64,000 bases of DNA from Saprospira grandis (GTDB lineage Bacteria > Bacteroidota > Bacteroidia > Chitinophagales > Saprospiraceae): positions 1,244,241-1,308,240 of the forward strand of contig NZ_CP110854.1 of the NCBI RefSeq assembly GCF_027594745.1, written 5' to 3'. The notes under the pieces are model-generated. The model was given only the letters and a program-made list of their open reading frames with translations, made no database searches and was not told where the DNA came from. The first letter of the stretch is position 1; the number at the start of each line of letters is the position of its first letter. This document shows positions 2,975 through 51,980 of the stretch, piece after piece. The translations under genes were made by a program, and so were the position numbers.

Positions 2975-3004
2975 TCCCCTCTCTAAACGAAAGGGGATCT
3001 AGTT

Positions 3005-9147: not shown

Positions 9148-9152
9148 GCGCA

Positions 9153-16352: not shown

Positions 16353-16477
16353 ATTTAGGCGCTAAGCTAACTGCATCCAAGGGTAAATAAGTTGGTTCAA
16401 TGATAGCAATACTATCAAGCACAAAGGTAATCAACTTAAATTAGTTAGTTTTCCTTTTTTTTTATTTTTTTAATGAT

Positions 16478-21332: not shown

Positions 21333-21347
21333 GGGGAAGGGGGGGGC

Positions 21348-22358: not shown

Positions 22359-22375
22359 ATGCTTTAAGATTTTTA

Positions 22376-22495
22376 TTTTTTGGGGCCTGCCGCCTTCGGC
22401 GGCCGGGCTGTGTCGTGGCTCGCAGGTCTGCTCGGCCCTGCGGCGCTTGCAGCGCCTGGGTCTGGCCTTCGGCCACCACTATCCATCCCTAGGCC
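22376..22495. repeat. GC-rich intergenic repeat family copy (type 2-like, forward)
   Basis: TTTTGGGGCCTGCCGCCTTCGGCGGCCGGGCTGTGTCGTGGCTCGCAGGTCTGCTCGGCCCTGCG...GGGTCTGGCCTTCGGCCACCACTATCC. Confidence 0.8.
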
Positions 22496-29400: not shown

Positions 29401-29810
29401 GCATCTTTATAAGCATCGACTAAACCCAAACTTCCTCGGCGCAGACTTTTCTCTACAATAGCCGGGTAGTTAGGGTCCATTTTACTGTCAGGGTGCAAGA
29501 CCCCTCTAGAAGCCAACTGACGACTCAAGTTTCCAATCGGATTGTTGCCAGGCTGACAAACCGCAATTCGCCAGTTTTGCCCCGCCTGCCCCGCAAAACC
29601 ATCTTTTAGTTTTGGGACCAAGGCCGCACGAACTAGCGAGGACTTACCTCCGCCTGCTCCTCCTACCAATGCCAAAAAACGATTGCCGCGAATCTTACGC
29701 AACAATTCATCGAGCTGCTTATTCCTTCCGAAAAAAAGCTCTCTTTCTTTGGCCTCATAAGGGCGCAGTCCAGGATAAGGTTCCTTAGTTAAAATTTCAA
29801 AGGATGCCAT
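26451..29810 (-). CDS. STAND-type P-loop NTPase with central coiled-coil, a TM helix and C-terminal WD40 beta-propeller (1119 aa)
   Basis: N-terminal PYPGLRPYEAKERELFFGR, Walker A GGAGGGKSS, Walker B-like LMVVIDQFEE. Hydrophobic helix LITYLSLGFGAICLILLLLAGVAL around residue 520, then a long Ala/Arg/Glu-rich coiled-coil (AKLKAEQARRDAMKSERRAQEER). WD40-like repeats follow (e.g. VTSIAVSADGQHVAGAGGSPDVSIWNIKSGQ, VLSVAFTHDGQKVLTGCANGEVKIYEV). Confidence 0.65.
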   Translation of the reverse strand: MASFEILTKEPYPGLRPYEAKERELFFGRNKQLDELLRKIRGNRFLALVGGAGGGKSSLVRAALVPKLKDGFAGQAGQNWRIAVCQPGNNPIGNLSRQLASRGVLHPDSKMDPNYPAIVEKSLRRGSLGLVDAYKDADVERANLMVVIDQFEEIFAFAKTSSAAQEDAATFVNLLLNASRQREAPIYIVLTMRSDYIGRCTDFRGLPEAINDGQFLIPKMKVEELKKVMIMPVKAVGASIAPDLVSRMIADIGEDFDDLPRLQHLMMRVWDNWVEVDSDPSLPLGIKHYENVGTIKEALSVHAEEAYNKLKTEEQKVTCQRMFRALSERNADGSASRRVATVGELCKLTDQSIESLAPVIVAFSRSDRRFLQAPPNRDDLELDTVISITHESLISYWDRLAHWAEEEHEAAETYTRLSTAAALYFEGKGALWVEPELSLGLKWYEPHTYDEEHPDRLAPTKAWASRYNTTYDETIDFLLKSHEASDKKLRDKKEDDDRKRKTRMLITYLSLGFGAICLILLLLAGVALDSARRSAQVAGRKEKEARLAAYQAEIAKQRANESRYMAKVNANRAQRESFLARQATEKAIRSSDIAELKSRAANQARSKALIALDTAELERQRAEIAKLKAEQARRDAMKSERRAQEERLKAIMTKGLSLAQSVAVKSWKVEEPDLEALLAKEAFELNRVNGGKEHDAYIYEALYKAIDKMQGVGDNPDFNSLNVAPDGLSHLGAMRSIVVSTAEGEFDQKVYTTGSDGWLFKWPLQVFDSKEEQRTAGAPQVLTRNRNNRVYRCMDMNAEGKFLVRAGDEDYMEIWDVAKEERMLKVDVHRGRRVWDLAFLPTGNAVISAGDDRSIKYTNMKGEVTPIVERTPYRVTSIAVSADGQHVAGAGGSPDVSIWNIKSGQEDFKLENPYNKRNATAVAISPTGRFVAVGYQDGSLLIFDIYHYKNGLDQDGNRYIPERLVYHSAKISDLSFSDDGTMLVVGSLDKRATLWQIWNQAYENYDNEEEFPFKDPKFQPVRLEDHEDWVLSVAFTHDGQKVLTGCANGEVKIYEVDMFRYASQLCAMVRRNLSNKEWKKYIGTDDPERDPRNQRLYIITAEGERVPLSTCGNEYQQGD

Positions 29811-31375: not shown

Positions 31376-31412
31376 AAGAGCAATAGAAACTATTTCTGTT
31401 GCTCTTTTTTTA
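31376..31412 (+). terminator. Rho-independent terminator after pdhA
   Basis: Hairpin AGAGCAATAGAAA-C-TATTTCTGTTGCTCT followed by TTTTTTT. Confidence 0.6.
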
Positions 31413-31414
31413 TC

Positions 31415-31555
31415 TTTTTGGGGCCTCCTGCCTTCGGCAGGCGCTACGTTTCGCAGCTCGCAAGTCTGCTCGGCCCTGCGCGGGCTTCGCCCGCTAGGTC
31501 TGGCCTACGGCCACTGCTGCACATCGCTAGGCCTGCGGCCCTTCGGGCCTGTAGA
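31415..31555. repeat. GC-rich intergenic repeat family copy (type 2, forward)
   Basis: TTTTGGGGCCTCCTGCCTTCGGCAGGCGCTACGTTTCGCAGCTCGCAAGTCTGCTCGGCCCTGCG...GGTCTGGCCTACGGCCACTGCTGCACATCGCTAGGCC. Confidence 0.8.
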
Positions 31556-31634
31556 AGACAGCGCCCAAGCTAGGGCCAAAAAAAGAGCCACTGAATATAT
31601 ATTCAGTGGCTCTTTTCTATAGGACAACAAAGCC

Positions 31635-32427
31635 TTATTCATCGGCATCATCGTCTAAATTCATGGCTGTAGATTGGCCCTTAGGCATCATACTCGTATC
31701 ATCCCAGAGCTTAGATACCCAAAAGCGAAGCACCGCCTGTTTCTTTTCTTCTTTATCCAGATAACCATAATTTCCAGCTGTTTTTGCTTCTAGTCGGAAA
31801 TTAGTCTCTGAGCCCGTCCAACGGAAGCTGATTTTCCGCCAAAGCAAACCATAACTCGCCTTTACATGCTTGACCACTCCTTGGCCATAAGTAGCCGTGG
31901 CAATTGCATAAGTAAGGGCATATTTAGCTCTTTTCTTTCGGCCAGCAGCATGGGCAATAATTTCAAAAGCCTGAACGCCCTCCAAATCTGAAACGATAGG
32001 GTGCCAGCGGCCATCGGCGGGGATTTCTCCTTGAATAAAAGTGCCGACTCGACCATTTGCTCCAAGCATGCCATTCACCTCTAGCTTAAAGTTGGGCAAG
32101 CTGGTCCCAATACCTACATTCCCCCCCCTTTCGCAAGAAAAGAAGGGTTTCATTTTCGCTATCATTAAAGCTGAGCCCTTCACTATGTGGAGTGGGATTC
32201 ATCGAGATGCTAAAAGAGGCCTGAGGGTCTCGGATGCTTTCATAGAAGCTCATCAAGCGCTTATTTGGGCCTTGAGTGGCCAACATAAGGCCCTCAGTCG
32301 AACTTTGAGAGAAACCGTCATCTACCTTATTGACGGTAGAGTCGATAAGGTCGGCAAAGTTCACTTCTGTGGGGACCATGCCCCTTTTGAACAGATTTTT
32401 GAGTGTGCTACGCGTGAGTAAAGCCAT
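31635..32427 (-). pseudogene. Tail-fibre-like protein of the eCIS cluster, split by a frameshift in a G8 (plus-strand C8) homopolymer
   Basis: ORFs 32086..32427 (N-terminal part) and 31635..32183 (C-terminal part) overlap in different frames around the C8 run at 32121..32128. The downstream frame carries the phage tail-fibre repeat-like motif GNVGIGTSLPNFKLEVNG. Joined length is ~260 aa. Confidence 0.5.
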
Positions 32428-32564
32428 TGAGTTGGATACTTTAACTTAAATGGAAAGGCGGGTGAATGCCATCAAATTTAAAAAATTGTTTGGAAAAGGC
32501 GCAGTCAAAACGATTTTATAATTTAGATTTTCTTAATAACGCCTTTATTTATTGTTTTTTAGGG

Positions 32565-32740
32565 CTTGGCGAGGCGGCGCAGCCGCCTGCGAGCGCAGCG
32601 AGCCATGGCCCAGCGCTGCGGAGTGGGTGGCCGAAGGCCAGACCGAAGCGCTGCAAGCGCTGAAGGGCCGAGCGAATAGCGAGCCCCGCAGCATAGCGGC
32701 GGCCGCCCCGCTATAAAGGGCGGCCGCGGGCCCCAAAAAA
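32565..32740. repeat. GC-rich intergenic repeat family copy (reverse) inside the eCIS operon
   Basis: GAGGCGGCGCAGCCGCC...CAGCGCTGCGGAGTGGGTGGCCGAAGGCCAGACC...GGGCCGAGCGAATAGCGAGCCCCGCAGCATAGCGGCGGCCGCCCCGCTATAAAGGGCGGCCGCGGGCCCCAAAAAA. Confidence 0.8.
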
Positions 32741-32816
32741 TGGACCTTGTAGCACTAAAAAAGGCCCAAAAGTGCGTGGACTTCTGGGCCTGATCAGTTA
32801 TGTTTTACACGATTGT

Positions 32817-35800
32817 TTAATCGTCTAGTTCACGCTCTTCGGTCATTACAAAGTCGCCATCGAGCATCATATTGTCTAGGCCAGCTTTGGCAGGAGACTG
32901 GAAAGCCACCTCGTCGAGGAGATAAAGTGGGTTTTTCTCGAAAGGAATGAGGACCGACCAAGGCGTGGTAGCCTTGAGCAAGGGCGAAGAAGAGGTATCG
33001 ATAGCCGTATCGCCTACATCGAAGCCTTCGCCACTGGGGAAGACCTGAACGGCAGAAAACTTAGTGACAAAATCGACATACTCTCTTTTTTCGATAAAGC
33101 TAAGGAGAACATCCTTGGCGATAGTACCGCCCAGTTCGAGTTCTCTTTGGCCGCCATACATCCAGGGGCAGACAAAGTCCATAATATCCTTATTCAACTT
33201 TTTGAGGAAGGTACCGTTGTTCATGCCTTTTTGGAAGCGCAAACCGCCGGCCACTTTTACTCTTTCGTAGATAGGATTACGGAGTTTGATCTCGACAAAA
33301 GGCGAAGCTAGGGGGATGAGATAATCTCGGATAGCCTCTAGGGTAGCGTTATTCACCATGGGGAGGCGGCCTTGGTGAGAGGCCTTAATTCTGGGTACGA
33401 CCACGAGGACCACCTGTCCTTTTTCGACAAACTCTTCATTGCCGATATGCGTTACGCATTTCACTTGGAAAATATCGGGAAACTGGTCGAGGACCAGGCG
33501 TTCATAATCCCAAGCAGAGACGGCTCTACCTTTATGGCGGAGGCGTTCGCTACTGCGGGTATAGAATTCCTTTTTATTTTCGCCGGGTCGGCCTTCAAAA
33601 GAGCCAAAAGGTTGTTGGACCGATCGGATTTGGACCAATGGGCTGGCCAAATTTTTAATTTTATTGGCGGGCAGTTTTTCTTCCAAGTGTTTCACCTCCT
33701 CTTCGGGGTTTCCGGCCCAGGTAGCCGAAATGGCTTGGGTAGAGAGGTGTAAAACGGTAGGCATACGGCTAGCGTCGCCACGGAGAGAGGCGCGCAGCCA
33801 GAACTTTCCTTTATCGAAGATGGTATTATTATCTGAAATATCTCTGGGGATATCGAAGGTGATAATACCGGAGTTATTAAAGAAATTGGTGGTATCGTTT
33901 AGGATTTGGGTTTGAGAAAACTCCTTCCATTCGTCATTAACGAGGAAGCTCCAAACGATTTCGGCCTGTTTGGCTTCGCTACTACGGCCCTTCATCATAG
34001 AGAAATAGTCTTGATTCTCTTTGAGTTCGAAGTAGATAGAGAGCGTAGCGGGTGGGTTAAAATCCTTGATTCCGAGGAAGAGGTAAGCATCTTCATCGTA
34101 GGCGGGCAACAAAGTGGGTTTAATTGGGCGGCCTTGAGAGAAATTGCGCATCACACCGAAGGGGTGGATATGGAACAGCTCTTCGACCACACCGCCAGAG
34201 CTATTTACGGTACCGATAGACATGATATTGACTTGGGCCGTAGCGGTATAGTCAATGCTCATATTTCGGATAACGGGAGTAAAAGGTTGGTTGGGGAGTT
34301 TCTTTTTCTCCTTAGTTTTGGGGTCTGCATTATGGGCAGCCACATCGGCGTAAAGATTTGGAAACTCATCGTGGGCGAAAGCAGAGGGCGGGTTAGTCAA
34401 TTCCATGCGGAAATAGCCGGTTTGCGTTTCGCTGGTATAAGTATCAATCTGTTTGAGATTGGCCTGTGGTTCTAGGTCAAAGAGTTTGAGATCGATATTA
34501 TCTAGGCAAGTAGCATTACTAATGCCATGCACATTATCTTCATCTTGTTCGAAGAGGAAATACTCCTTGACATTATTCTTATTTTCGGGGAAGAACTCTC
34601 CTTCTCGGAGGGCCGACAATTTGATTCGGTAATCTTCATTGCGGATACCGAGGCCATACTCTCGATAATAGCCACGGAGGCCTTTTGTATTATCGGGTAG
34701 ATTATGCCAATTGATATTGATTTTGAGGTTGGTCAATTCCTTTTTGAAAAGCTCGGTTTTTCCGATAAGGAGATAAGAGCCTAGCTTAGGCGTGGGGCCA
34801 AAAGCTTGGAAAGGGATACTGCCTTCTAGTTGGCCGTATTCATTACTTAGGTTTAGGCGTTTGATTCCTTTGACCTCAACATCAATGTTAATGCGTTCTA
34901 GGCTTAGCTCTTTAAGGAAAGAGTAAGAATAGGTTACATTTTCATTTTGGTGAAGGACCTTCATCACGGGAAGGCTAGTATCGAAATCGGGGCCTAAGAC
35001 ATCGGCATTATAGCCCACGATAGCGGGGGCATTGGCGGATACGGTAGCGAGCAGGCTAAACTCGGGAATATTCCAGTTTTCTGGGGGAAGGAGTTCGCAG
35101 CTTTTAGCTTCGATCCAACCTTCTTCTCCAGAGAGGACTAATTTTAGGCTATTTTTAAAGACCTTAGAGAAGGCATCTTCTTTAGATAGGCCTTGATTTC
35201 GGCTAATATCCTTAATCAGAAGATTTAGGGTATACATAGAAGACTTATCGAATCGCATGCGCAACTTGATACTACGGTGGCCTTCTTCCATTTCGAGAAT
35301 AGGGGCGGCCATAGCCCAGCCTACTTCGGCATAGACCATTTGGCGTTCATCGGAAGCTTTTTCGAGTAATTCTTCTCCGAAGGCGGGCCATTCCTCTTCA
35401 TTATTGATAAAGCGTTTGCCTAGGCCATCTCTAGAGTTGGCTACAGGGGCGGCATACATATTTGTGATAAGGCGATAAGAGCTCCCGATACCGATTTTGG
35501 GGTTTTTGCTCACAAAAAGCGTCTTCACTGCATCCACTTTAGCTTGGTTCAGTTCGATGCCATAATCGGTTTTATAGCGGATGGGTTTACCATCTTCATC
35601 GACGCCAGCATCTAGAAGGGTGCCTGCGGGGAGGAAAAAGCTATCAATATGTTTGGCCAGGTTAAAATAGACATTTACCTGATCGGGTTGCAAGCCTCTT
35701 TCCTGCATTTTAAGCACATCGTAATAATAGAAATCGAGATGCTTTTCGGTGAGAGTATTGAGGTGGTCCTGATTATGTTTAAAGAGTTTCACGAAAGCGA

Positions 35801-36587
35801 TAAAGAGCGCCAAATCGGGGCGGTGATCATCTTTTTCTTTGAGTGATTTCTCTAGATATTTTGGTGCTTCTTGTACGATATAAGAGAGCACGCTATAGAA
35901 GGTCCGGAACTGTAGTCGGATCTTCTTGGTATAATCTTGAATTTTGAAGTTAGCTCGAGGGTCTTCTACTTCGATAGCGCGAGCAGAGAGCAACTTTTTG
36001 GAGGGGAACCAGATGCTATGAAAATGCTCTTCGATTTCGTTGGGGCTATAGATGCCTGTTTGGTGAAACTCGAGGAAGCGATCTTGTTCTAGGAGTTCGA
36101 TTAAGTTAGAAGAGAGTTGCTGTTTGATTGCGTTCTCTAATTCGTTCTCTAGTTCATCGGTATCGCCGGGTTGCAGCGTATTCATTTTGAGGGCATGCAC
36201 ATACCAGTCGTTAAACTGTTTGGCCATATCGAACACCTGCGTATAGAGGGCCTTAAGCGCATCTAGGCGGCCTGCGGTACGGGCGGCATTTTCTAGCTCG
36301 GTAATATATTTGGCGTGTTCCTGCTCAATTTTTTTAAGATCGGTAGCGATAATAGAGGCCAAGAAAACCGAGAGGTCATTGCGCAAAAAGCGCGACCAAT
36401 CTCCTGCGGGGGAGTTTGTTTGGTCATAAAACTGGACCATTTCGGCATATTTGGCAGAAAAGGCGAGGAGGTCACTAGTAGAGCGTTCATCTACCTTAAT
36501 ATATTCTGGGATGAGAGCTTTGAGCAATCGTTGGCTCTGCGTTACGCCATTCCAGGACAGGCTAGATTTATTCTTTTTGGTACTCAT
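32817..36587 (-). CDS. Large baseplate wedge protein (gp6/Baseplate_J-like; Afp11/Afp12-like, possibly fused)
   Basis: 1256 aa, directly downstream of the gp25-like gene. Size and position match the gp6/gp7-like baseplate proteins of phage-tail-like systems. No catalytic motifs. Assignment is by synteny and size only. Confidence 0.5.
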   Translation of the reverse strand: MSTKKNKSSLSWNGVTQSQRLLKALIPEYIKVDERSTSDLLAFSAKYAEMVQFYDQTNSPAGDWSRFLRNDLSVFLASIIATDLKKIEQEHAKYITELENAARTAGRLDALKALYTQVFDMAKQFNDWYVHALKMNTLQPGDTDELENELENAIKQQLSSNLIELLEQDRFLEFHQTGIYSPNEIEEHFHSIWFPSKKLLSARAIEVEDPRANFKIQDYTKKIRLQFRTFYSVLSYIVQEAPKYLEKSLKEKDDHRPDLALFIAFVKLFKHNQDHLNTLTEKHLDFYYYDVLKMQERGLQPDQVNVYFNLAKHIDSFFLPAGTLLDAGVDEDGKPIRYKTDYGIELNQAKVDAVKTLFVSKNPKIGIGSSYRLITNMYAAPVANSRDGLGKRFINNEEEWPAFGEELLEKASDERQMVYAEVGWAMAAPILEMEEGHRSIKLRMRFDKSSMYTLNLLIKDISRNQGLSKEDAFSKVFKNSLKLVLSGEEGWIEAKSCELLPPENWNIPEFSLLATVSANAPAIVGYNADVLGPDFDTSLPVMKVLHQNENVTYSYSFLKELSLERINIDVEVKGIKRLNLSNEYGQLEGSIPFQAFGPTPKLGSYLLIGKTELFKKELTNLKININWHNLPDNTKGLRGYYREYGLGIRNEDYRIKLSALREGEFFPENKNNVKEYFLFEQDEDNVHGISNATCLDNIDLKLFDLEPQANLKQIDTYTSETQTGYFRMELTNPPSAFAHDEFPNLYADVAAHNADPKTKEKKKLPNQPFTPVIRNMSIDYTATAQVNIMSIGTVNSSGGVVEELFHIHPFGVMRNFSQGRPIKPTLLPAYDEDAYLFLGIKDFNPPATLSIYFELKENQDYFSMMKGRSSEAKQAEIVWSFLVNDEWKEFSQTQILNDTTNFFNNSGIITFDIPRDISDNNTIFDKGKFWLRASLRGDASRMPTVLHLSTQAISATWAGNPEEEVKHLEEKLPANKIKNLASPLVQIRSVQQPFGSFEGRPGENKKEFYTRSSERLRHKGRAVSAWDYERLVLDQFPDIFQVKCVTHIGNEEFVEKGQVVLVVVPRIKASHQGRLPMVNNATLEAIRDYLIPLASPFVEIKLRNPIYERVKVAGGLRFQKGMNNGTFLKKLNKDIMDFVCPWMYGGQRELELGGTIAKDVLLSFIEKREYVDFVTKFSAVQVFPSGEGFDVGDTAIDTSSSPLLKATTPWSVLIPFEKNPLYLLDEVAFQSPAKAGLDNMMLDGDFVMTEERELDD

Positions 36588-36654: not shown

Positions 36655-37071
36655 CTAGAGTTCGGTACCTTCTGCGAGATAGAAGGGATAGACCATATTA
36701 TTACGAGCATTCACGCCCTTAATTTCATAGACCACATTAACATTAACTCGGCCACGGAGCTGCTCGCTTTCGTCTACATCTACAGAGATGAGGCGGATAC
36801 GGGGTTCGTGGTAGAGAATAGCGGTAGTGATGAGATCTTGAATTCGAATTCGGGTAGCGTTATTGATACTTTGAAAAGCTTGGCTATGGATATCGCAACC
36901 ATAGCTAGGGTTCATGATTCGTTCGCCGGGGAGAGTAGAGAGAAGAATATTAAGGGATTCCTTAATATCTTCTTCATCTTGAGACATCACAATTCCGCGG
37001 GTAGAGTCGCTAAAGCGGGGCGGGAAGCTCCAGCCTGAGCCTAAAAATGATTTTTGGATATCGTCTGACAT
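36655..37071 (-). CDS. gp25-like baseplate wedge protein (GPW/gp25 family)
   Basis: 138 aa. N-terminal FLGSGWSFPPRF and overall size and composition typical of gp25/GPW lysozyme-fold baseplate proteins (Afp9/TssE-like). Confidence 0.7.
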   Translation of the reverse strand: MSDDIQKSFLGSGWSFPPRFSDSTRGIVMSQDEEDIKESLNILLSTLPGERIMNPSYGCDIHSQAFQSINNATRIRIQDLITTAILYHEPRIRLISVDVDESEQLRGRVNVNVVYEIKGVNARNNMVYPFYLAEGTEL

Positions 37072-37124
37072 GCTTAAAAATTTCTTATCGTCTAAAAATT
37101 GGGATCAACTATTTATCTTAAGTG

Positions 37125-37264
37125 CGGAGCGGGCAGTTGTATTGGCCTAGCGCTGCGGAAGGGGGGGCCGAAGGGCCAGACCGAAGCCCGCAGGGCTAAA
37201 GGGCCGAGCAGGCTTGCGAGCCCTGTAGCATAGCGCCGCAGCTTTGCTGCGGAGGCCCCAAAAA
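37125..37264. repeat. GC-rich intergenic repeat family copy (reverse) between the PAAR and gp25-like genes
   Basis: ..CTAGCGCTGCGGAAGGGGGGGCCGAAGGGCCAGACCGAAGCCCGCAGGGCTAAAGGGCCGAGCAGGCTTGCGAGCCCTGTAGCATAGCGCCGCAGCTTTGCTGCGGAGGCCCCAAAAA. Abuts the PAAR stop codon. Confidence 0.8.
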
Positions 37265-37555
37265 CTACCCAATCAATACAGTAGGAGCACCAGCAACTAC
37301 AGCACCGCCATGGCCACAAGAGTCGCCAATACGGGCAGCGGGTTTCCCCTCAATCATGACCGTTCCAGAGCCAGAGGCAATCGAATCGCCTGCGCAAGCA
37401 CAGACGGCAGAATCGCCAAGGCGGGCAGCAGGAATTCCGGTAACCATGACGGTACCGGCACCGCTAACAATGGGTCCACCCACATGAGGTGAAGGACCGG
37501 GGCAAACGGCGGGGCAAACGTGCATATCGCCAATTCGAGCAGAGGGCATTCCCAT
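37265..37555 (-). CDS. PAAR-repeat spike-tip protein
   Basis: 96 aa with three PAAR-like repeats (PSARIGDMHVCP, PAARLGDSAVCA, PAARIGDSCGHGG). Gly/Val-rich. Confidence 0.85.
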   Translation of the reverse strand: MGMPSARIGDMHVCPAVCPGPSPHVGGPIVSGAGTVMVTGIPAARLGDSAVCACAGDSIASGSGTVMIEGKPAARIGDSCGHGGAVVAGAPTVLIG

Positions 37556-37576
37556 AACTTATTGATTTTAATACTT

Positions 37577-39421
37577 TTAATTAATCTTTACTACACCACC
37601 TTTGACTTCGCAAAGTCCGCCCCCTTCCAATTTGGCCGAGGCAGAACCCTTGAGTTCCATAGTGGTAGAGCCTTCCCCTTTAACGGCTAGGGCCTTAATA
37701 GAGAAGTTGGCGACCGCCTCCATTTTGGTATCGGACTTTGATTTAGTCTCGATGTTAATGTCGGCCTCCATTTTAATATTTTTCTTGGCTTTAACGACAA
37801 AGTCGCCATCGGTCTCGAAGAGAATCCCGTTCTTATCCATCAACATTTTGTTGACGTTTACGGGGTCTTCAATCAGGATCGTATCTTCATCATCATTGAG
37901 CTCGATAATCATCTTATCTTCCGTAATGATCTTGACAATATTTTTGCCTGGATCATCCTGAAGTTCAATCCGGGTTTTCCCCTTATTGATAGAAATCGCC
38001 TTAAAGATGTTGGGGTCTGCGGGAATATGCGTTTCCTCGGTCGTGATTCCTCTGCCGCTACTATACATAGAGCCCAGAATGACCGGATAGGTGGGGTCTG
38101 AGTTGAAAAAGCCAACCACCACCTCATCCCCTACTTCGGGATAGAAAACAAAACCGCAATCTTCGGTAGCATAATAATGCGCCATACGGGCCCAAACGCC
38201 CTCTCCAGCTTGGTCATCAATAATAGGGATATTGATGAGGACGCGGAATTCGCCATCGGGATCCGAGTCAATTTGCTTGACCACCCCATGCTGAAGCCCA
38301 TGAATAGCGGGCAACATTCCGCCTGCGGGCCGAGAGCTAGCCGTAATATTAGCTTCCATATAAGGTTGGGGATCCATGCCCAAGCCCACCTCGGTCAACC
38401 ATTGGCCTTTCATGACCGTATGGCGAATTCGGCTAACATAAGCATCGCCAACAAAGCGAGTTCCAAAGCCAAATAGCTCAATCGTTTTACCCAATTCCGC
38501 CTTAGCAGAACCATAAAATTTGAGGCTCCCTCGGATGCGAGAAAGATGTCCTCTTTGGTAAACCGAATCGGCCCAAGACTGGATCACATCCTTAGTGACC
38601 GGCGGAGTTGTTTTGACCGTATTCTTCGGTTCAATCACTGCGCCCAGCTTTCCAGGATCCAAATCGCCCTGAGCATTTACAGAAGGTTTGGCCCCATCGG
38701 CCGTAACAATGGCCAAATCGGTATGGCTCCAACAAGTAGCGCCCACCTCCGTATATTGGTAAGTCGAATCGATATTCATATCCATCTCCACCAAATCATT
38801 TCCATAAGAAATGACCAGTTCAGACTTTTCGCTCACCGTAGGTTTCTTAATCGTAATTTCGCCATCATTGATAATGGTCACCAAGCTATTCACATCGGCC
38901 CGAGACTGAATAAAATCCCAGTCCGTACTCCAATACTGAATCAGTTTTTTGTGTGTGCCCGAAGTCCCTTCCACATCTGCAGAAAGTCCAGCTTCACTCA
39001 CCACAGCCGAAATAATATCCGAGTCGGCCTGATCATAAAACACCTTGTTTTTACGGCCAACCGTTAGCTTGAGCGCCTCATCCTTACACTTGAGTACCAA
39101 AGCGGCACCACTATAATTAGACTGCTTAATACCGTGCTCCACCAAGATCCCCTTATAAAGAGTTTCCTCCTTACCTGGGCCATATCCCGCTTTCACTTCT
39201 ACCTCCTTGCCCGGCTCAAACATGGCATCTTCAGAGGTAGGAAACTTTTGCTCCCGAGTATCTCCGTCCTTGAGTGTAATACGAGCATAAGGAATTTTAT
39301 TCAGCTCCTTAACAATATCTACACTCTCCACGACCATTGTTTTAGGCACCTCAGTTCCATCAATCAGTACAAGTACCGACAGATAGCCTTCGCCCATGCC
39401 TTTTACTGGAGAATCTGCCAT
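37577..39421 (-). CDS. VgrG / gp27-gp5-like central spike (baseplate hub) protein
   Basis: 614 aa. Central block GFGTRFVGDAYVSRIRHTVMKGQWLTEVGLGMD and YYATEDCGFVFYPEVGDEVVVGFFNSDPTYPVILGSMYS resemble phage late-control D / gp5 OB regions. C-terminal beta-helix-like repeats follow (KMEADINIETKSKSDTKMEAVANFSIKALAVKGEGSTTMELKGSASAKLEGGGLCEVKGGVVKIN). Immediately upstream of PAAR. Confidence 0.7.
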   Translation of the reverse strand: MADSPVKGMGEGYLSVLVLIDGTEVPKTMVVESVDIVKELNKIPYARITLKDGDTREQKFPTSEDAMFEPGKEVEVKAGYGPGKEETLYKGILVEHGIKQSNYSGAALVLKCKDEALKLTVGRKNKVFYDQADSDIISAVVSEAGLSADVEGTSGTHKKLIQYWSTDWDFIQSRADVNSLVTIINDGEITIKKPTVSEKSELVISYGNDLVEMDMNIDSTYQYTEVGATCWSHTDLAIVTADGAKPSVNAQGDLDPGKLGAVIEPKNTVKTTPPVTKDVIQSWADSVYQRGHLSRIRGSLKFYGSAKAELGKTIELFGFGTRFVGDAYVSRIRHTVMKGQWLTEVGLGMDPQPYMEANITASSRPAGGMLPAIHGLQHGVVKQIDSDPDGEFRVLINIPIIDDQAGEGVWARMAHYYATEDCGFVFYPEVGDEVVVGFFNSDPTYPVILGSMYSSGRGITTEETHIPADPNIFKAISINKGKTRIELQDDPGKNIVKIITEDKMIIELNDDEDTILIEDPVNVNKMLMDKNGILFETDGDFVVKAKKNIKMEADINIETKSKSDTKMEAVANFSIKALAVKGEGSTTMELKGSASAKLEGGGLCEVKGGVVKIN

Positions 39422-39457
39422 TTTTCTTTATTTATCTTCTAGTTAATTGAGTCAATT

Positions 39458-39646
39458 CTATCGATTCATTTTGTACTCCCAAGCTTCCATTGCTCGGCGC
39501 ACCGCTTCCTGAATCAAGATTTCTTTATCTTTTTCGGTCATGCCTTTCCCCTGTTCCTTTCCATCTCCTTTTCCCTGACCTTTGCCCCCACCATTTTCTG
39601 CATTCACATTAGTGTTGACATTCATTTCTTTTACTGTTACTGCCAT
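39458..39646 (-). CDS. Small Gly/Lys-rich hypothetical protein (62 aa) inside the eCIS operon
   Basis: MAVTVKEMNVNTNVNAENGGGKGQGKGDGKEQGKGMTEKDKEILIQEAVRRAMEAWEYKMNR. Sits 36 bp upstream of the spike gene. Coding status uncertain. Confidence 0.3.
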   Translation of the reverse strand: MAVTVKEMNVNTNVNAENGGGKGQGKGDGKEQGKGMTEKDKEILIQEAVRRAMEAWEYKMNR

Positions 39647-39681
39647 AAGCTCTATATTTTTTTGCTGTTTTTAAGCCAGTT

Positions 39682-39815
39682 TTTTGGGGGCCTGCGGGCT
39701 TCGCCCGCCGCTATGTTGCAGGGCTCGCAAGCCTGCTCGGCCCTTCGCAAAAGCTTCGCTTTTGCTCGGTCTGGCCCTGCGGGCCACCCTTCCACAGCGC
39801 TAGGCCAAAAACGGC
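39682..39815. repeat. GC-rich intergenic repeat family copy (type 2, forward) inside the eCIS operon
   Basis: TTTTGGGGGCCTGCGGGCTTCGCCCGCCGCTATGTTGCAGGGCTCGCAAGCCTGCTCGGCCCTTCGC...GGTCTGGCCCTGCGGGCCACCCTTCCACAGCGCTAGGCC. Ends 5 bp before the stop of gene 39821..40510. Confidence 0.8.
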
Positions 39816-39820
39816 TTCGC

Positions 39821-40510
39821 TTAATGGGCCACCACCTTAGAGAAAGCGTAAGAAAGTTCAATTTCTTGGACCAGCAAATCCTCTGAAGTAGAGTTGAGCG
39901 AGCTCAAGCTCATTTTAGAGGGATAAGCAAAATTAAACTCCATAGAAATCAAAATTTGCGGCTTTCCAGATTTTGTCAAGTTTGGGTGCATTACATTTAC
40001 CTGTACCCCCTTGAGCTTAATCTGCTCATTCCAAGAAGCCATGGCCTCAAAACTTTCTTCACACCATTTGGTCCAAGGATCCGAGCTTTTAATGACATCT
40101 GGGCGCACCAAGCGCTTTAGCGTAATGGCCGAGTTTTTCATTTTATCGGGTAAGTCAATTGGATAATTATATCCCCCCTCATTATACGTCTTCTTTCCCT
40201 CCAAACCAATCTCCAAACCACTCACCTCAATAAAGGAGTTATGAATATTGGTATCGCCAGGAGTAGGTAAGCCATTGGCTCCGCCACCGTCTATCTTATT
40301 GATTGCCTTTTTCATCATTCCTCCAATCATTCCTCCTACAAAGGTATCTACAGCCCCTTTAGCAACTCCCGCCAAAAAGCTATTCCCTTCATGCTTCTGA
40401 TCATACATCTGCACATCAAAATAAAAGGCAGGAATGGGCGAGGTCGTTTTTTCGTCCTCTTTCATGACTTCATCTAAGAAGCGCTCAAATGGGCTAATGG
40501 TATTATTCAT
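39821..40510 (-). CDS. Tube-fold protein with C-terminal extension (tube initiator / Afp7- or Afp5-like)
   Basis: 229 aa. N-terminal PIPAFYFDVQMYD and internal NSAITLKRL echo the tube-protein motifs (KFYFSIEID / SNITLKKGTF) of the two downstream tube genes, with ~80 extra C-terminal residues. Confidence 0.45.
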   Translation of the reverse strand: MNNTISPFERFLDEVMKEDEKTTSPIPAFYFDVQMYDQKHEGNSFLAGVAKGAVDTFVGGMIGGMMKKAINKIDGGGANGLPTPGDTNIHNSFIEVSGLEIGLEGKKTYNEGGYNYPIDLPDKMKNSAITLKRLVRPDVIKSSDPWTKWCEESFEAMASWNEQIKLKGVQVNVMHPNLTKSGKPQILISMEFNFAYPSKMSLSSLNSTSEDLLVQEIELSYAFSKVVAH

Positions 40511-40570
40511 ATCTTATTGGGATTATCTACAGCGATTGGTCTAAAAGTTAATGTGCTAAGCGGTTTTATC

Positions 40571-41029
40571 CTAACCGCCCACCTCCGTTTCAAAATGACG
40601 GAAGGCAAACTCCATTTCTTCTACTGCCACCTCATTTTCAGATTCGGCATCAAAGTTAGAGGGAATATATTTTGTGATAAAGGCCTTTTCGAGTCGCCAG
40701 ATAAACTGCGTCTCCATATTGTGGTCCAAAAGGTGGATTTCAATAGTTCGGCGAGAAGTATACTCTCGACTCACCGCCACCTGGTCAAACAATCGGCTCA
40801 TTTGATCATCTTGAGAAAACGATCCTTTTTTAAGGGTAATGCGGCTGTATTGTAACATACCAGGCATGCGCTCCTTTCCAAAAAAGGGAGAATTACCATC
40901 TCGGTACTCAATCACCCCAATTTCTGCCTCCAAGCCATCTACAGTTTGAAAAGACATTTCAATTGGACCAATAAACACCCGAAAGCTAAAGCGCGTTAGG
41001 GGCCAAGTCATTGTGGAATCTGAACTCAT
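40571..41029 (-). CDS. Tail tube protein (T4 gp19-like / Afp1-like), copy 2
   Basis: 152 aa. MSSDSTMTWPLTRFSFRVFIGP...MLQYSRITLKKGSF...IEIHLLDHNMETQFIWRLEKAFITKYIPSNFDAESENEVAVEEMEF is collinear with copy 1. Confidence 0.75.
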   Translation of the reverse strand: MSSDSTMTWPLTRFSFRVFIGPIEMSFQTVDGLEAEIGVIEYRDGNSPFFGKERMPGMLQYSRITLKKGSFSQDDQMSRLFDQVAVSREYTSRRTIEIHLLDHNMETQFIWRLEKAFITKYIPSNFDAESENEVAVEEMEFAFRHFETEVGG

Positions 41030-41277
41030 AACATCTATTTTTAAGAAAGCGGCTACCCAAGTTAACTAGCTAAATACTAGGGCCAAGGCAAAGTTTTTTT
41101 GGGCCTATGCCCTGAAAATAGCGCTTAGCGATACTGCCTTTCATTATCAAGCAGTTAAGACCTGCTATAAGTTAAGCGCTTTAGGCTACTAAATTAAAGA
41201 AAAAATCTTAATAGCACAAAAAAAACCTAGCAGGTTTTTACCTGCCAGGTTTATTTTATTGCTAAGCTAAATTAAGC

Positions 41278-41733
41278 TTATGCAGTTTCCATAGTCCACT
41301 CTTCGCAGCAGAACTCAAGTTCTTCGATAGCGACTTCAGAGTCAGCTTCTGCGTCAAAAGGAGTAGGAGTAAACTTAGTAACGAAAGCGTTGAGTAGCGT
41401 CCAAGTGAAAACGATCTCATCAGCTTCATTCATCAAGTGAATGATTACAGTGCGGCGCTCAGTGTGTTGGTGGTCAACTGAAAGCTCTTTGTACCACTGA
41501 TAGAGGTAGTCATCGCTCTGGAAAGTACCCTTCTTCAAGGTGATGTTGCTATAAGACATCAAACCGGGACGCTTAGTCTTGTAGAAGTTGGTAGAGTTAC
41601 CTGCGCGGTACTCCATTACAGAAATCTCAGTCTCAAGACCTTCGATTGTCTGGAAGCCCAAAGTGTTGGGGATATTGTCAATCTCGATAGAGAAATAAAA
41701 CTTAGGCAGTGGCCATTCTGTTGTTGCAGACAT
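41278..41733 (-). CDS. Tail tube protein (T4 gp19-like / Afp1/Hcp-like), copy 1
   Basis: 151 aa. MSATTEWPLPKFYFSIEIDN...GLMSYSNITLKKGTF...VIIHLMNEADEIVFTWTLLNAFVTKFTPTPFDAEADSEVAIEELEF is characteristic of eCIS/T4 tube proteins. Confidence 0.8.
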   Translation of the reverse strand: MSATTEWPLPKFYFSIEIDNIPNTLGFQTIEGLETEISVMEYRAGNSTNFYKTKRPGLMSYSNITLKKGTFQSDDYLYQWYKELSVDHQHTERRTVIIHLMNEADEIVFTWTLLNAFVTKFTPTPFDAEADSEVAIEELEFCCEEWTMETA

Positions 41734-41845
41734 GATATATGGCGTTTAAAAGTATGATCTAAATTTAAAATGTTGATGCTCTCTCGTTTGAGCCCAAGAG
41801 AAAGGCTAAATGCTTTAGATGTCATCTCTAAGTTAAGCGCAAAGC

Positions 41846-43339
41846 TTACTCAGCACCACCGGGCATTTTTTGCTGGAAGGTGATAACGATGAATTCAGCA
41901 GGACGAGAGATAGCTACTTTCACAGAAACTTTCATGTAACCATCTAGGATATCCTGAGGAGTCATAGTTGTACCCAAACCAACCTCAACTTGGAAAGCCT
42001 GATCTTCAGTAGCACCTACCAAAGCACCTGCTTGCCACTGGCTACGCAAGAAAGAACCAATCATTGATTTAACTGCGATCCAAGTGTTAGCGTCATTGGG
42101 ACGGAATACGAAGGGCTCACAAGCGAACTTCACAGACTGCTCCAACATGATCATAGTACGACGTACGTTGATGTAGCGCCAGTCTTGGCTGTTACCGTCT
42201 AGCGTACGAGCACCCCATACCAAAGTACCTTTTCCAACGAAAGGACGGATAGCGTTGATTGCTTTACCGCTCAAAGGCAAGTTCAAGTCTTCTTGCTCAG
42301 TAGCAGAAATGTTCACAGTAGGTCCAGTTACAGAAGAAACTGATACGTTAGCAGGAGCTTTGAATACACCTACAGTGCTATCTACCAAAGAGTATAGACC
42401 AGCTACAGCGCCAGAAGGAGGCAATACGTTCAACATATCACGCATTTGACCCAATACATCATTGTATACAGGGCTTACAGCCTTCATGATGTTGTGTACA
42501 GCAGTTACGTTAGCATCAGCGTCAGCCATCTTAGCGATTTCAGCTTTGATCAACTCACCTTTTTCAGCTTTAACGAAACCAGCAGCTACGTTGTCATCTA
42601 CTTCTTTGTTAAGCAGTTCAACGAAACCTTCTAGGTTAGCAACGTTAGTGTAGTCAAACTCATCAGCTTGAACAACAGTAGCTTTCAACCAAGGGTAGTA
42701 AGCTGCACCGAAGTCTAGGAAGTTGTTGCCATAAGCCTCACGAGCGCGAGTTACAACATCATCATCTAGCATGCTGCGAGATTCGTTACCGTTCCATACG
42801 TCAAGGATAGCGAAGCGGCTGCGAGTATCAGCACCACAGTGCTTCAACATAGCTTGCTGTACAGTAGCACAGTCACCTTCTTCCAAAGAGATAGCATCGG
42901 GAACTACAAGCAAAGTAGGCTCTTGCTCCTTCAACAAAGCAGTGATACCACCGCCGTTCTCAGCACCCACTAGGGTCTTGGGAGAAACGTCGTCGTTGTA
43001 TCCACCAACAGAAACGATGTAGCAAGTTCCACCGCCGTTAGCGTAGAACATTTGAAGGCTACGGAACAACATGTAGTTACCGCCATCAACAGAAACGGTG
43101 TAGTTGTCGCCTTCAGCATCAACGTTGAAAGTAGTTTTGGGAGCACCACCGAAATAAGATAGGTACTCAACCAAAGAAGTAATGCGCATTGGCGTGTTGG
43201 TCAAGTCGCGCTTACCAGCAGCGGCTTTCTCAGTGTGGCCAATGAAAGCAGGGATAGCAGTTCCTACTGCTACAACAGAATTCGAAAAGGCGCTTTTTTC
43301 TTCGATATAAACGCCTGGTGTTGCATACTGTTTTGCCAT
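41846..43339 (-). CDS. Contractile tail sheath protein
   Basis: 497 aa. N-terminus MAKQYATPGVYIEEKSAF...VGTAIPAFIGHTEKA is the canonical sheath start (PGVYIEE, AIPAFIG). Sits immediately upstream of the tube genes. Confidence 0.85.
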   Translation of the reverse strand: MAKQYATPGVYIEEKSAFSNSVVAVGTAIPAFIGHTEKAAAGKRDLTNTPMRITSLVEYLSYFGGAPKTTFNVDAEGDNYTVSVDGGNYMLFRSLQMFYANGGGTCYIVSVGGYNDDVSPKTLVGAENGGGITALLKEQEPTLLVVPDAISLEEGDCATVQQAMLKHCGADTRSRFAILDVWNGNESRSMLDDDVVTRAREAYGNNFLDFGAAYYPWLKATVVQADEFDYTNVANLEGFVELLNKEVDDNVAAGFVKAEKGELIKAEIAKMADADANVTAVHNIMKAVSPVYNDVLGQMRDMLNVLPPSGAVAGLYSLVDSTVGVFKAPANVSVSSVTGPTVNISATEQEDLNLPLSGKAINAIRPFVGKGTLVWGARTLDGNSQDWRYINVRRTMIMLEQSVKFACEPFVFRPNDANTWIAVKSMIGSFLRSQWQAGALVGATEDQAFQVEVGLGTTMTPQDILDGYMKVSVKVAISRPAEFIVITFQQKMPGGAE

Positions 43340-43394
43340 GATTTAATTTATTTTGAAAAGTTTAATTGATTTACAAATTTATTTTGTCATCTGA

Positions 43395-44522
43395 TTACAA
43401 ATATACAATTATTTCGGAAAATACACCATCCTCAACGTTAAAATCTGTTTTTAATATTGATTTTGCTGAATGATTGGGTAAATCTGTAATCCATTCGATT
43501 CCATTTTTGCCTCTTTTGGTCCGTAACTTAAAGCGACTCAGCTGTTTTTCCTTAAAAGGAACAGGCTCTGAAGTTTTGACCAAAACGGCCAGTTCGCCAG
43601 AAGGCATAAGTACCTCCTCGGCCTCTTCAAAGTCTACTGTCTCGCCAGCTCGACCATTATCGTAGGCCTCATGTCCTTTGTGCTGCTTATCCTCAGTCAT
43701 TTCTACTATATAGTAATGCCAAGGTAAAGCCCTAGCTGGAAAATGGATATTATACTCTCTTTTGGGCAACAACTTTCCCTGCTCATCAAAAAAGCGGTAA
43801 GGGCTGTCATCCTCCTTATCTATATAAATATCCACCACTCCCCAAATTCCGGCAGTTCCCTCAGGAGCCAAATAAAAAGTATATTCTTCCAAACCATCTA
43901 GCTGCAAAATATACTTTCCCGCTGGGGCATCAGGCATGACCACATCTACATGGGCATTTTCACCTTCCTGCTCCAAAAAGAAATAAGACTGGCCCAACTC
44001 ATCTACTACCTCGATTTCCGCATCCTCCTCTTCATCATCAAATTCGTAGCGGAAAACAGGCCCTTCAAGCGGTAAGCGATCCATCTCAGAAACCAACTCA
44101 TCATTAGACAAATTGCCCTCCTCATCTTCAATCTTATCTTCGGCCCGATTCGTAAAGTGATAAATATAGTCACCAAACTCATAAGGGAGGCCCGTATAGT
44201 TAAGGAAGAAAGCATCTTCTACCTTCATCCAAAAACTCAACTTTAAAGGTTTTTCCAAACTTTCTAAAGCAGGCCCTCCAGAAACTGTCTCGCCATAACC
44301 AATCAGCAAATTATTGCCCTCAAAGGCCGTTTTAAGCTGTGTTTGCTTTAGGCGAAAAACCGTATCGGAAGTAGGACTAAGAACTACATCTTTACAGATC
44401 TGCTCATCAAAGTAATCGTGCAGTATCGCTATGTTTAATAGCTGATTGTAGCGAGTTTGAATGTTCAGCAGCATATGATGCTCCATCGGATTCCGTCGCC
44501 TGCTAAATTTACGTCTCTTCAT
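43395..44522 (-). CDS. Acidic hypothetical protein (375 aa) of the eCIS cluster
   Basis: Basic N-terminus MKRRKFSRRRNP, then D/E-rich segments (YEFDDEEEDAEIEVVDELGQSYFFLEQEGENAHVD). No recognisable family. Lies between the cap-like and sheath genes. Confidence 0.5.
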   Translation of the reverse strand: MKRRKFSRRRNPMEHHMLLNIQTRYNQLLNIAILHDYFDEQICKDVVLSPTSDTVFRLKQTQLKTAFEGNNLLIGYGETVSGGPALESLEKPLKLSFWMKVEDAFFLNYTGLPYEFGDYIYHFTNRAEDKIEDEEGNLSNDELVSEMDRLPLEGPVFRYEFDDEEEDAEIEVVDELGQSYFFLEQEGENAHVDVVMPDAPAGKYILQLDGLEEYTFYLAPEGTAGIWGVVDIYIDKEDDSPYRFFDEQGKLLPKREYNIHFPARALPWHYYIVEMTEDKQHKGHEAYDNGRAGETVDFEEAEEVLMPSGELAVLVKTSEPVPFKEKQLSRFKLRTKRGKNGIEWITDLPNHSAKSILKTDFNVEDGVFSEIIVYL

Positions 44523-44689
44523 TAAGCTCTTCTGCTTTAAGTCCCTTAAAATTAGAGAATTTAATTTTGGTCTGCAAAGTTTATTCGCAGTTTTTTTTCA
44601 TTTTTTTTAATAAAAGCTAAAATTTACGTTGACTTAACATTTTTCGTAGATTCAGCTAATATTATTTTGCCATTAGTTAAGCGACAAAG

Positions 44690-44948
44690 CCCAACTACAG
44701 CCGCCCCCATTTGGCCTAGCGATCTGTAGGGGTGGCCAAAGGCCAGACCGAAGCGCGCAGCGCTGACAACAAGGCTGAAAGCCGCAGTTCGATGACCGAA
44801 GGGAATAACGGCCGAGCAACCCGACCAACGGGAGCCGACGCAGCGAAGCAAGTAACAACGAGCCCCGACAACCAGCCTCGAAGAGGCGCCAGTTCGACGA
44901 CCGAGGGGAGTAAACGTAGCGCCTGCCGAAGGCAGGAGGCCCCAAACC
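44690..44948. repeat. Long, divergent copy of the GC-rich repeat family (reverse) with an internal direct repeat, inside the eCIS operon
   Basis: CCTAGCGATCTGTAGGGGTGGCCAAAGGCCAGACCGAAGCGCGCAGCGCTG..., then a ~130-bp insert carrying two similar segments (GCAGTTCGATGACCGAAGGGAATAACG / GCCAGTTCGACGACCGAGGGGAGTAAACG), and ending GCGCCTGCCGAAGGCAGGAGGCCCCAAA. Confidence 0.7.
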
Positions 44949-44951
44949 TTC

Positions 44952-45512
44952 CTAAATCTTGCGAATAGACGGAATTTCTGGCTCGGGCTTCTTATGCTCA
45001 ATCGGAATTGTTTTGAATCGATAGAGCACCGAAGGCAAATACTTGGCCCCTACCCCATTCCAAACATTAGAAATATCGCGAAAATCTGGCGATACCATTT
45101 CGGCAACCAAACGCGTAAGAGTGCCCGAAAGTGCCGGCGTATTTTGCTCATTAAAAACGCCTTGGCGGCTTTGAAAAAAAGCAATGACCGAGCTGACAAA
45201 CTTAAGGCCCTCCAGATAATTTTCATTGGTAAAATAGGCCGAAAACAACATATATATATTGACTTCAACCGGGGGCGTCACCTTGGTAAAATTCCCTCGC
45301 TTATTCGGTTGGTAAGTCGCCGTGCTGCTCTTATTCCGCTCAGCCTCAATGTTAATGATCGTCATCACGATCTTATCGGCCTCTTGCACCGCCATCGAGC
45401 CATCGGCATTTACCAAATGCGAAATGATAACCTTATCCTCTAAAATATTGTGTTTAGACTGCAAAAAGCGGTTGAGCTCGCCCACCACAGCCGTGACAAC
45501 TTTATCAATCAT
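44952..45512 (-). CDS. DUF4255 (Pvc16/Afp16 N-terminal domain)-like protein, putative tail terminator/cap
   Basis: 186 aa. MIDKVVTAVVGELNRFLQSK...ISHLVNADGSMAVQEADKIVMTIINIEAE..., with size, composition and operon position matching the DUF4255 component of eCIS loci. Assignment from memory of the family, not a search. Confidence 0.5.
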   Translation of the reverse strand: MIDKVVTAVVGELNRFLQSKHNILEDKVIISHLVNADGSMAVQEADKIVMTIINIEAERNKSSTATYQPNKRGNFTKVTPPVEVNIYMLFSAYFTNENYLEGLKFVSSVIAFFQSRQGVFNEQNTPALSGTLTRLVAEMVSPDFRDISNVWNGVGAKYLPSVLYRFKTIPIEHKKPEPEIPSIRKI

Positions 45513-51914: not shown

Positions 51915-51980
51915 AAAAAAGTCTAGCCCTTAAAAGAGCTAGACCATTTTTAGCGCATCAAACGCAATGGGGATAATAAA

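Follow-up and report, generated by a model that had tools for sequence, protein, structure and literature searches.

A split gene at the end of a CIS cluster

The DNA analysed here is a stretch of 64,000 nucleotides (hereafter, the window) from the chromosome of the Saprospira grandis type strain WH^T (CP110854.1; 4,250,550 bp). The minus strand of the window carries a CIS cluster which is collinear with the tCIS cluster, and whose last gene is divided into two open reading frames. The features of the cluster, listed in the direction in which the minus strand is read, are the following:

44952-45512, minus strand: cis16A (Pvc16_N), matching All3327 (E 2e-15)
43395-44522, minus strand: putative cis16B, with a weak match to All3326 (E 0.004)
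41846-43339, minus strand: sheath gene
41278-41733 and 40571-41029, minus strand: two tube genes
39821-40510, minus strand: tube-like gene
37577-39421, minus strand: spike gene, VgrG-like
between the spike and gp25 genes, minus strand: PAAR gene (96 aa)
36655-37071, minus strand: gp25 gene
32817..36587, minus strand: cis11, intact, 1256 aa, baseplate protein with cage and C-terminal extension, matching All3317 (7b5h_AH, E 5e-122) and also Alg11, Pvc11 and Afp11
32762..32791, minus strand: terminator-like hairpin in the gap between cis11 and the split gene, a consensus match only
31635..32427, minus strand: full extent of the disrupted cis13-like short-fibre gene; its length is 793 nt in the sequenced allele and would be 792 nt (263 aa) with seven G
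32086..32427, minus strand: N-terminal ORF of 113 aa (WBM75598.1), with native residues 1-102, the predicted baseplate-anchor domain, followed out of frame by a further 11 residues (ECRYWDQLAQL) up to the stop
32121..32128, minus strand: G8 homopolymer (C8 on the plus strand), made up of the third base of K100, the codons of G101 and G102 and one surplus G, which causes the frameshift
31635..32120, minus strand: native C-terminal coding part, no longer in the reading frame of the start codon, holding the fibre motif (residues 103-119) and, after a linker, a predicted beta-sandwich head (~129-240)
31578..31616, minus strand: hairpin with a perfect 18-bp stem and a T run, 3' of the split gene

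Upstream of the split gene, the rest of the cluster in the window (36655..45512) is apparently intact in all its genes. Those that L003 also covers (the two tubes, the tube-like gene, the spike, gp25 and cis11) show 98-100% amino-acid identity to DSM 2844. Downstream, the hairpin at 31578..31616 likely serves as the intrinsic terminator of the transcript. Two further features of the region were considered and rejected as related phenomena. The inverted repeats at 31415-31544 and 32627-32739 do not represent a DNA-inversion switch: they belong to a GC-rich repeat dispersed through the window in at least 20 copies, and strains whose gene is intact carry them in the same flanking positions. Nor is the overlap of the ORFs 44624-45001 and 44952-45512 a second frameshift; the 125-aa ORF at 44624-45001 covers copies of the repeat, has no counterpart in the other clusters and is probably not a real gene.

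The two halves of the last gene meet at a homopolymer. Positions 32121..32128 of the plus strand read CCCCCCCC, which on the coding minus strand gives a run of eight G. The ORF 32086..32427 (minus strand) ends in ...LFLRKGGECRYWDQLAQL followed by the stop, and the ORF 31635..32183 (minus strand, 182 aa) contains ...CERGGNVGIGTSLPNFKLEV...; the two are in different frames, and their overlap spans the G8 run. Position 32183 is the mechanical limit of the second ORF, for which the PGAP product is a protein of 172 aa (WBM75597.1). Both WBM75598.1 and WBM75597.1 are labelled hypothetical protein by PGAP, with no pseudogene flag. Removal of a single G (G7) results in one ORF of 263 aa containing ...LFLRKGGNVGIGT..., and addition of two (G10) also restores the frame at the cost of one additional Gly. 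The length of this homopolymer inside the gene hence sets the frame, G8 being out and G7 and G10 in. The initial annotation had reported a gene split by a frameshift in G8/C8 at 32121..32128, and the one-G deletion bears this out; on re-reading, the coordinates that it gave for both ORFs and the two peptide strings that it quoted were all correct.

Runs of eight G or C are not rare in this DNA: two were observed in the 64-kb window, against 3.1 +/- 2.4 expected from dinucleotide shuffles of the window. By itself, the G8 run is unremarkable given the base composition. Its coincidence with the loss of frame in a conserved gene is not chance.

Identity of the split gene

We compared the family of the repaired protein with proteins of known structure. 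Residues 1-40 of the family profile A1 match residues 1-40 of All3316 (7b5h_AE, E 2.2e-7), and residues 68-125 of the family profile match Bdellovibrio fibre proteins (Bd2133, E 7.7e-11). All3316 is Cis13 of the thylakoid-anchored CIS of Anabaena, where it forms trimers, resembles a tail fibre and uses its N-terminal domain to attach to the baseplate, the contact point being the C-terminal extension of Cis11 (PMC8894136). The repaired protein fell into no family of Pfam or NCBIfam, and its PHROGs hits, to tail and tail-fibre proteins, were all weak (E ~0.004). In the AF2 model, the N-terminal domain comprises residues 1 to ~100. It is followed by a single fibre-type motif (GGNVGIGT..P.FKLEVNG) and then by a beta-sandwich domain, the lectin-like head at the C-terminus. 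The 'tail-fibre-type repeats' described initially were thus an overstatement, as there is one fibre-type motif plus the beta-sandwich domain and no repeat array.

Gene order is also informative. In all 80 genome loci considered (80/80; Saprospiraceae, Cyclobacteriaceae, Fulvivirga, Marivirga, Aquimarina), the gene directly upstream of the family member is a cis11 homologue. A cis12 homologue lies immediately downstream of the cis13-type gene in one distant locus, L052 (Cyclobacteriaceae), and ~2-3 kb downstream in L012 and L016. The order in L052 (cis11, cis13-type gene, cis12) is that of Anabaena all3317, all3316 and all3315. The first reading of the gene as tail-fibre-like is supported by the N-terminal match to Cis13, by the match to Bdellovibrio fibres and by the constant adjacency of cis11, and sequence comparison allows us to identify it as a cis13-type short-fibre gene of a CIS. 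By analogy with Anabaena, Cis11 would be the docking partner of the protein; the native 263-aa product would normally be attached to the baseplate and is probably a trimer.

A search with the repaired protein recovered 135 homologues, nearly all of which are single ORFs of ~250-280 aa, uninterrupted at the break point. The ten nearest all carry LFLRKGGNVGIGT. The break interrupts the motif which the family conserves most strongly, and in which G102 shows no variation across the 41 sequences of alignment A1 and at least 90% conservation across the 58 of alignment A2. Two shorter homologues, P0093 and P0071, were considered as recurrent splits and set aside; their break positions differ, which points to unrelated events and provides no evidence of a hotspot. 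One of these two split members is in CP073749.1, with no long homopolymer, and one is on a contig of 0.86x coverage.

The G8 tract in the sequence data of strain WH^T

The WH^T genome was assembled with Unicycler as a hybrid of ONT R9.4 reads (340x, SRR23239776) and NovaSeq reads (310x, SRR23239775), obtained from cells of an old culture-collection strain grown in rich broth (PMC10508125). The Illumina-only Logan contig SRR23239775_1909 (L091, 1015 bp) corresponds to positions 31587..32601 of the window at 100% identity, G8 included, and the adjacent Logan contigs likewise match the window at 100% identity. This contig and the published assembly derive from one Illumina library: their agreement does not depend on Nanopore reads or on the choice of assembler, but both go back to a single DNA preparation. 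The two WH^T sequences compared at the tract, both of them consensus assemblies, have G8. When WH^T was aligned with DSM 2844 over ~20 kb, the G8 indel was the sole uncompensated coding frameshift.

Alleles of related strains and age of the frameshift

The repaired 263-aa protein is exactly that of a natural protein, P0121, which is encoded on two JGI metagenome contigs showing 98.1-98.9% DNA identity to the window. The sequences found at the site of the tract, given as codons, are the following:

two JGI contigs encoding P0121: CGA AAG GGA GGG AAT
strain Lewin and three metagenome contigs: CGG AAG GGA GGT AAT
DSM 2844: CGT AAG GGA GGT AAT
CCB-QB6 and L001/L002: CGC AAA GGA GGT/GGC AAT

The gene is intact in Lewin, DSM 2844 and CCB-QB6, and in at least 90 further loci. 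Among 96 related loci, the longest G run at the site is of 2-3 nucleotides in 92, of 4 in three and of 6 in one (Ascidiimonas, where it is in frame). A run of seven or more was found in none of the 96, alleles of 98-99% identity included, and neither the tract nor a frameshift at its position is present in any of the orthologues checked at these loci. A pattern scan of metagenomes for WH-type flanks with an insert of any length had no hits, and no natural G7 intermediate was recovered; a follow-up protein scan yielded six loci, none of them with the tract. No length variants of the WH allele turned up in the sequence collections, the G10 protein being absent from them and the G7 protein occurring only in distinct strains. 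As judged from these alleles, the G8 tract is unique to WH^T.

The part of the gene which is now out of frame allows the age of the event to be estimated. Between the repaired WH^T gene and the nearest natural allele there are 11 nucleotide differences and no amino-acid difference. In codons 102-263, the comparison with the nearest intact allele (L092) gives 9 synonymous and 0 nonsynonymous changes, and that of the out-of-frame C-terminal part with Lewin 6 and 0; the family-wide pN/pS is ~0.03. Since ~77% of the sites are nonsynonymous, a gene relaxed for long would show mostly nonsynonymous changes. As none is found in the out-of-frame part, the substitution pattern indicates that the frameshift is very recent relative to the divergence of the strains.

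Origin and predicted consequences of the frameshift

The reading that we consider best, and which we regard as probable, is that the cis13-type gene of WH^T has suffered a recent, strain-specific loss-of-function frameshift by slippage, possibly in laboratory culture. A real frameshifted gene is also the best supported of the three explanations that had been given initially. The nearest allele has GGGAGGG where WH^T has GGGGGGGG, and the simplest path from one to the other would have two steps: a silent GGA to GGG change in the WH^T lineage, converting GGGAGGG into G7, and then a replication slippage adding one G (G7 to G8).

In its native form, the protein would dock on the Cis11 extension by its N-terminal anchor, and beyond the anchor it would have a single fibre motif and a lectin-like head. 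The reading frame is lost where the anchor domain gives way to the fibre motif. Translation of the G8 allele would therefore produce residues 1-102 plus 11 unrelated residues, that is, an anchor devoid of the distal head, and the fibre would be non-functional or 'headless' in an otherwise intact machine. A comparable truncation has been engineered in Anabaena: with Cis13 reduced to Met1-His100, the CIS was still assembled, but was free-floating or mis-oriented (PMC8894136). We infer loss of Cis13 function in WH^T. Since cis13 closes the cluster and a strong hairpin, the likely terminator, comes after it, no polar effects are expected.

With respect to the origin of G8, the sister genus offers a precedent. 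In Aureispira, cultures in full medium spontaneously give rise to T6SS-negative derivatives with IS insertions in cis14 and cis11; starvation with prey brings about reversion, and the authors consider the machine costly (bioRxiv 10.1101/2024.01.29.577165). Because such losses are selected in rich medium, and because WH^T has long been kept in culture collections, a mutation of the domestication type would be the likeliest origin of the G8 tract.

Alternative explanations

The initial annotation had also proposed slipped-strand phase variation. According to this explanation, frequent changes in tract length would toggle the fibre, and hence anchoring, triggering or targeting, between ON (G7, G10) and OFF (G8, G9). 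The length of G8 is sufficient for slippage, G7 gives the natural protein exactly and the gene is otherwise undamaged, so that a revertant would be fully functional; moreover, Aureispira switches the same machine reversibly by nutrient-dependent insertion and excision of an IS. However, the site is interrupted by A, T or C in all 96 loci, so that the tract is not a maintained contingency locus, and G8/C8 runs show no enrichment in the window. The Illumina-only contig represents a single G8 path at 310x, and the absence of length variants of the WH allele from the collections likewise speaks against frequent switching. The comparison of tract lengths gives no support to phase variation as an evolved mechanism; regulated phase variation is unsupported, and we consider the explanation as a whole unlikely. 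Reversion from G8 to G7 is possible, and a switch that is reversible de facto in WH^T, with the head ON at G7 and OFF at G8 and with revertants selected by starvation with prey, can be envisaged, its probability being likewise low.

A homopolymer error in sequencing or assembly, the true genome having G7 and an intact gene, was the second alternative. Unicycler starts from the Illumina graph, and the Illumina-only contig which spans the whole gene has G8. This, together with the lack of any other uncompensated coding frameshift in ~20 kb, makes a Nanopore homopolymer artefact very unlikely, even if R9.4 reads, prone to homopolymer miscalls, were used and even if the gene lies between dispersed repeats that break short-read contigs, with long-read bridging needed nearby. 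The identity of the repaired protein to a natural one would fit an error; the difference from the nearest allele, on the other hand, consists of a substitution plus an insertion and is not a pure change in length. We thus disfavour this explanation and assign it a very small probability.

The full-length protein might also be produced from the G8 allele by recoding, through +1 ribosomal frameshifting or transcriptional slippage. The sequence GGG GGG G would be slippery both for tRNA-Gly and for RNA polymerase, and a low level of read-through is plausible. Programmed frameshift sites are, nevertheless, normally conserved, and this one is conserved in no orthologue; neither a stimulatory stop nor a rare codon directly follows the tract, the zero frame continuing for 11 more sense codons. 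Recoding appears highly improbable. Lastly, the view that there are two genuine genes, for an anchor protein and for a head protein, which agrees with the PGAP annotation of two hypothetical proteins and not of a pseudogene, is effectively excluded, as the homologues on complete contigs are essentially all single ORFs, the break falls at G102 inside the most conserved motif and the other two split members break elsewhere.

Nature of the machine and significance

The initial annotation had spoken of an eCIS and of particle targeting. The homologous cluster of Aureispira encodes an inner-membrane-anchored T6SS of subtype iv, which possesses a trans-envelope complex and also extracellular antennae; the sheath of S. 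grandis groups with that of Aureispira, and the rhapidosomes of Saprospira are regarded as T6SS^iv (bioRxiv 10.1101/2024.01.29.577165). By analogy, the system of S. grandis is most likely a cell-anchored T6SS of subtype iv, the classical 'rhapidosome'. The eCIS label is doubtful for it, and so is particle targeting, because the homologous machine of Aureispira is membrane-anchored and the S. grandis sheath is grouped with it. The fibre may instead play a role in anchoring or signalling at the periphery of the baseplate, as Cis13 does in Anabaena.

With the recent loss-of-function frameshift as the preferred reading, several consequences follow for the use of strain WH^T. WBM75598.1 and WBM75597.1 should be annotated as one disrupted cis13-type gene, for which a pseudogene flag is due. 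WH^T probably possesses a prey-killing machine (ixotrophy) with a defective part, and this may bear on its predatory behaviour; in the paper announcing the genome, the predator-prey relationship 'remains unclear' (PMC10508125). Caution is hence advisable when WH^T is used as the wild-type reference in studies of Saprospira T6SS^iv or rhapidosomes.

The strain may also be of use. There are no genetic tools for the Saprospiraceae (bioRxiv 10.1101/2024.01.29.577165). WH^T would represent a natural 'headless-fibre' mutant in which the other genes of the cluster are intact, and G7 revertants could provide near-isogenic pairs. Such pairs could reveal whether the role of Cis13 in T6SS^iv lies in anchoring, in antenna coupling or in triggering. 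If the reversible switch, which we hold to be improbable, were true, it would parallel, by slipped-strand changes, the nutrient-dependent switch that Aureispira operates through an IS, and would offer the first natural pair of cis13 mutant and revertant in a group lacking genetic tools.

Comparison with known systems

The closest known counterpart is Cis13 of Anabaena (All3316; PDB 7B5H; PMC8894136). The N-terminal anchors are homologous, homology being shown for the N-terminus only. In both cases a small, tail-fibre-like protein is encoded directly after cis11, and related clusters show the order cis11-cis13-cis12. The engineered truncation at residue 100 of the Anabaena protein is matched by the natural one at residue 102 in WH^T. 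The distal parts differ: the C-terminus of the Anabaena protein (154 aa) is a triple helix that includes a transmembrane segment, whereas that of Saprospira (263 aa) is devoid of such a helix and has a fibre motif of the Bdellovibrio type and a predicted beta-sandwich head.

With respect to the state of the genes, the T6SS^iv of Aureispira sp. CCB-QB1 is comparable. This organism belongs as well to the Saprospiraceae and has the same type of cluster; homologues of the split gene follow cis11 in loci of Aureispira MAGs, and in CCB-QB1 structural genes are spontaneously inactivated during culture in full medium. The lesions are nevertheless of a different kind, since in Aureispira IS insertions in cis14 or cis11 abolish assembly, whereas WH^T has a one-nucleotide homopolymer insertion in the last gene, cis13. 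The latter gene is outside the discussion of the Aureispira paper (bioRxiv 10.1101/2024.01.29.577165).

In Campylobacter, Neisseria and Haemophilus, for instance, surface genes that vary in phase contain poly-G/C contingency loci, which are conserved across strains, vary in length and are over-represented in the genome. The WH^T gene resembles them in that an intragenic G/C homopolymer sets the frame of a protein of the surface or of target interaction. It differs from them in that the tract occurs in one strain and is absent from 96 relatives, with no enrichment of G8 in the window. As to its kind, the event is an ordinary one, a recent frameshift by homopolymer slippage in one strain.

The likeness to the fibres Afp13 and Pvc13 and to eBAP anchors (PMC12923769) is one of concept: a short, conserved N-terminal anchor is combined with variable distal binding domains. 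At the N-terminus, AfpX13 and a tail fibre are matched weakly and without significance (E 0.5-0.75), and no sequence match to Afp13 or Pvc13 reaches significance; moreover, the Saprospira protein lacks a long beta-spiral shaft, and its host machine is probably not extracellular. The fibres of Bdellovibrio bacteriovorus (Bd2133, Bd2439, Bd1334 and Bd3182; PDB 8OND and others) are long, multi-repeat and trimeric, whereas the Saprospira protein has a single copy of the motif. In the comparison with these fibres and with the T4 gp9-type protein of the phage baseplate, TM-scores were low (0.2-0.3).

Repeats and strain differences around cis13

The tail-fibre-like gene cis13 is flanked by two inverted copies of a GC-rich repeat (31400-31585 and 32607-32739) which is dispersed over the window, is chiefly intergenic and measures about 130-150 nt per copy. 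The repeat is found at no fewer than 20 further sites of the window (for example, at 2828-2971, 16466-16622, 22370-22495, 39682-39806, 51386-51524, 51796-51920 and 56795-56929), and appears to form a REP- or MITE-like family in S. grandis. Strains Lewin, DSM 2844 and CCB-QB6 have the same repeat copies on both sides of cis13 as WH^T. It is at these repeat elements that Illumina-only contigs break.

The region between the baseplate gene cis11 and cis13 differs from strain to strain. DSM 2844 carries about 0.9 kb of additional DNA between both genes (9051-9981 of its locus, L003), which is absent from WH^T at window positions 32445-32447; the WH^T intergenic region includes a terminator-like hairpin (32762-32791).

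Other G8/C8 run and other split of the cis13 family

Besides the cis13 tract, a single G8/C8 run is present in the window (21339-21346). It precedes by 7 nt the start codon (ATG, 21332) of a DUF6976 gene, the first in a tandem array of three paralogues:

20352-21332, minus strand, DUF6976 protein
19334-20311, minus strand, DUF6976 protein
18246-19229, minus strand, DUF6976 protein

An independent split of a cis13-family gene was found in the complete genome of bacterium SCSIO 12741 (CP073749.1; positions 2501-3300 of locus L099), where the frame shifts near residue 165 at ...CCAAGAAGGGGAAGTAC... and no long homopolymer occurs. Either a genuine mutation or a mistake in sequencing could explain this split.

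Genes neighbouring the CIS cluster

The following genes lie close to the contractile injection system (CIS) cluster:

26451-29810, minus strand, nSTAND1 NTPase with WD40 repeats (1119 aa)
46191-48173 and 48219-50105, minus strand, two large GH18 (chitinase-like) proteins, directly adjoining cis16A
51981-54668, minus strand, SprB-repeat protein (895 aa) with a T9SS C-terminal sorting domain

In Saprospira, only one gene, encoding pyruvate-dehydrogenase E1 on the opposite strand, separates the nSTAND1 NTPase from cis13. An NTPase of this type with WD40 repeats is close to the CIS cluster in 21 of the 80 loci compared (among L034-L074), and in the Cyclobacteriaceae locus L052, the sole one examined for adjacency, it is directly 3′ of cis12; the protein may act in this CIS lineage as a conserved accessory component or as a regulator. 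GH18 homologues are also close to the CIS cluster in three other loci (L042, L050 and L066), and those beside cis16A may be cargo or accessory enzymes.

A 125-aa ORF (44624-45001, minus strand), which shares 50 nt with the end of cis16A, probably does not represent a true gene: other CIS clusters lack a homologue of it, and it also overlaps two dispersed-repeat copies (44713-44749 and 44912-44946).

Comparison with related systems

The SprB-repeat protein is encoded a few kb away from the CIS cluster. In Aureispira, the grappling hooks that catch prey are built by a T9SS substrate.

When a cis12 from Cyclobacteriaceae was used as tblastn query, neither the 64-kb window nor the DSM 2844 locus yielded a homologue; cis14 (tape measure) and cis15 (ATPase) were likewise not recognised across the window. 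The three genes presumably sit at other sites of the genome. In Anabaena and the distant relatives, by contrast, cis12 comes after cis13 in the gene order cis11-cis13-cis12.
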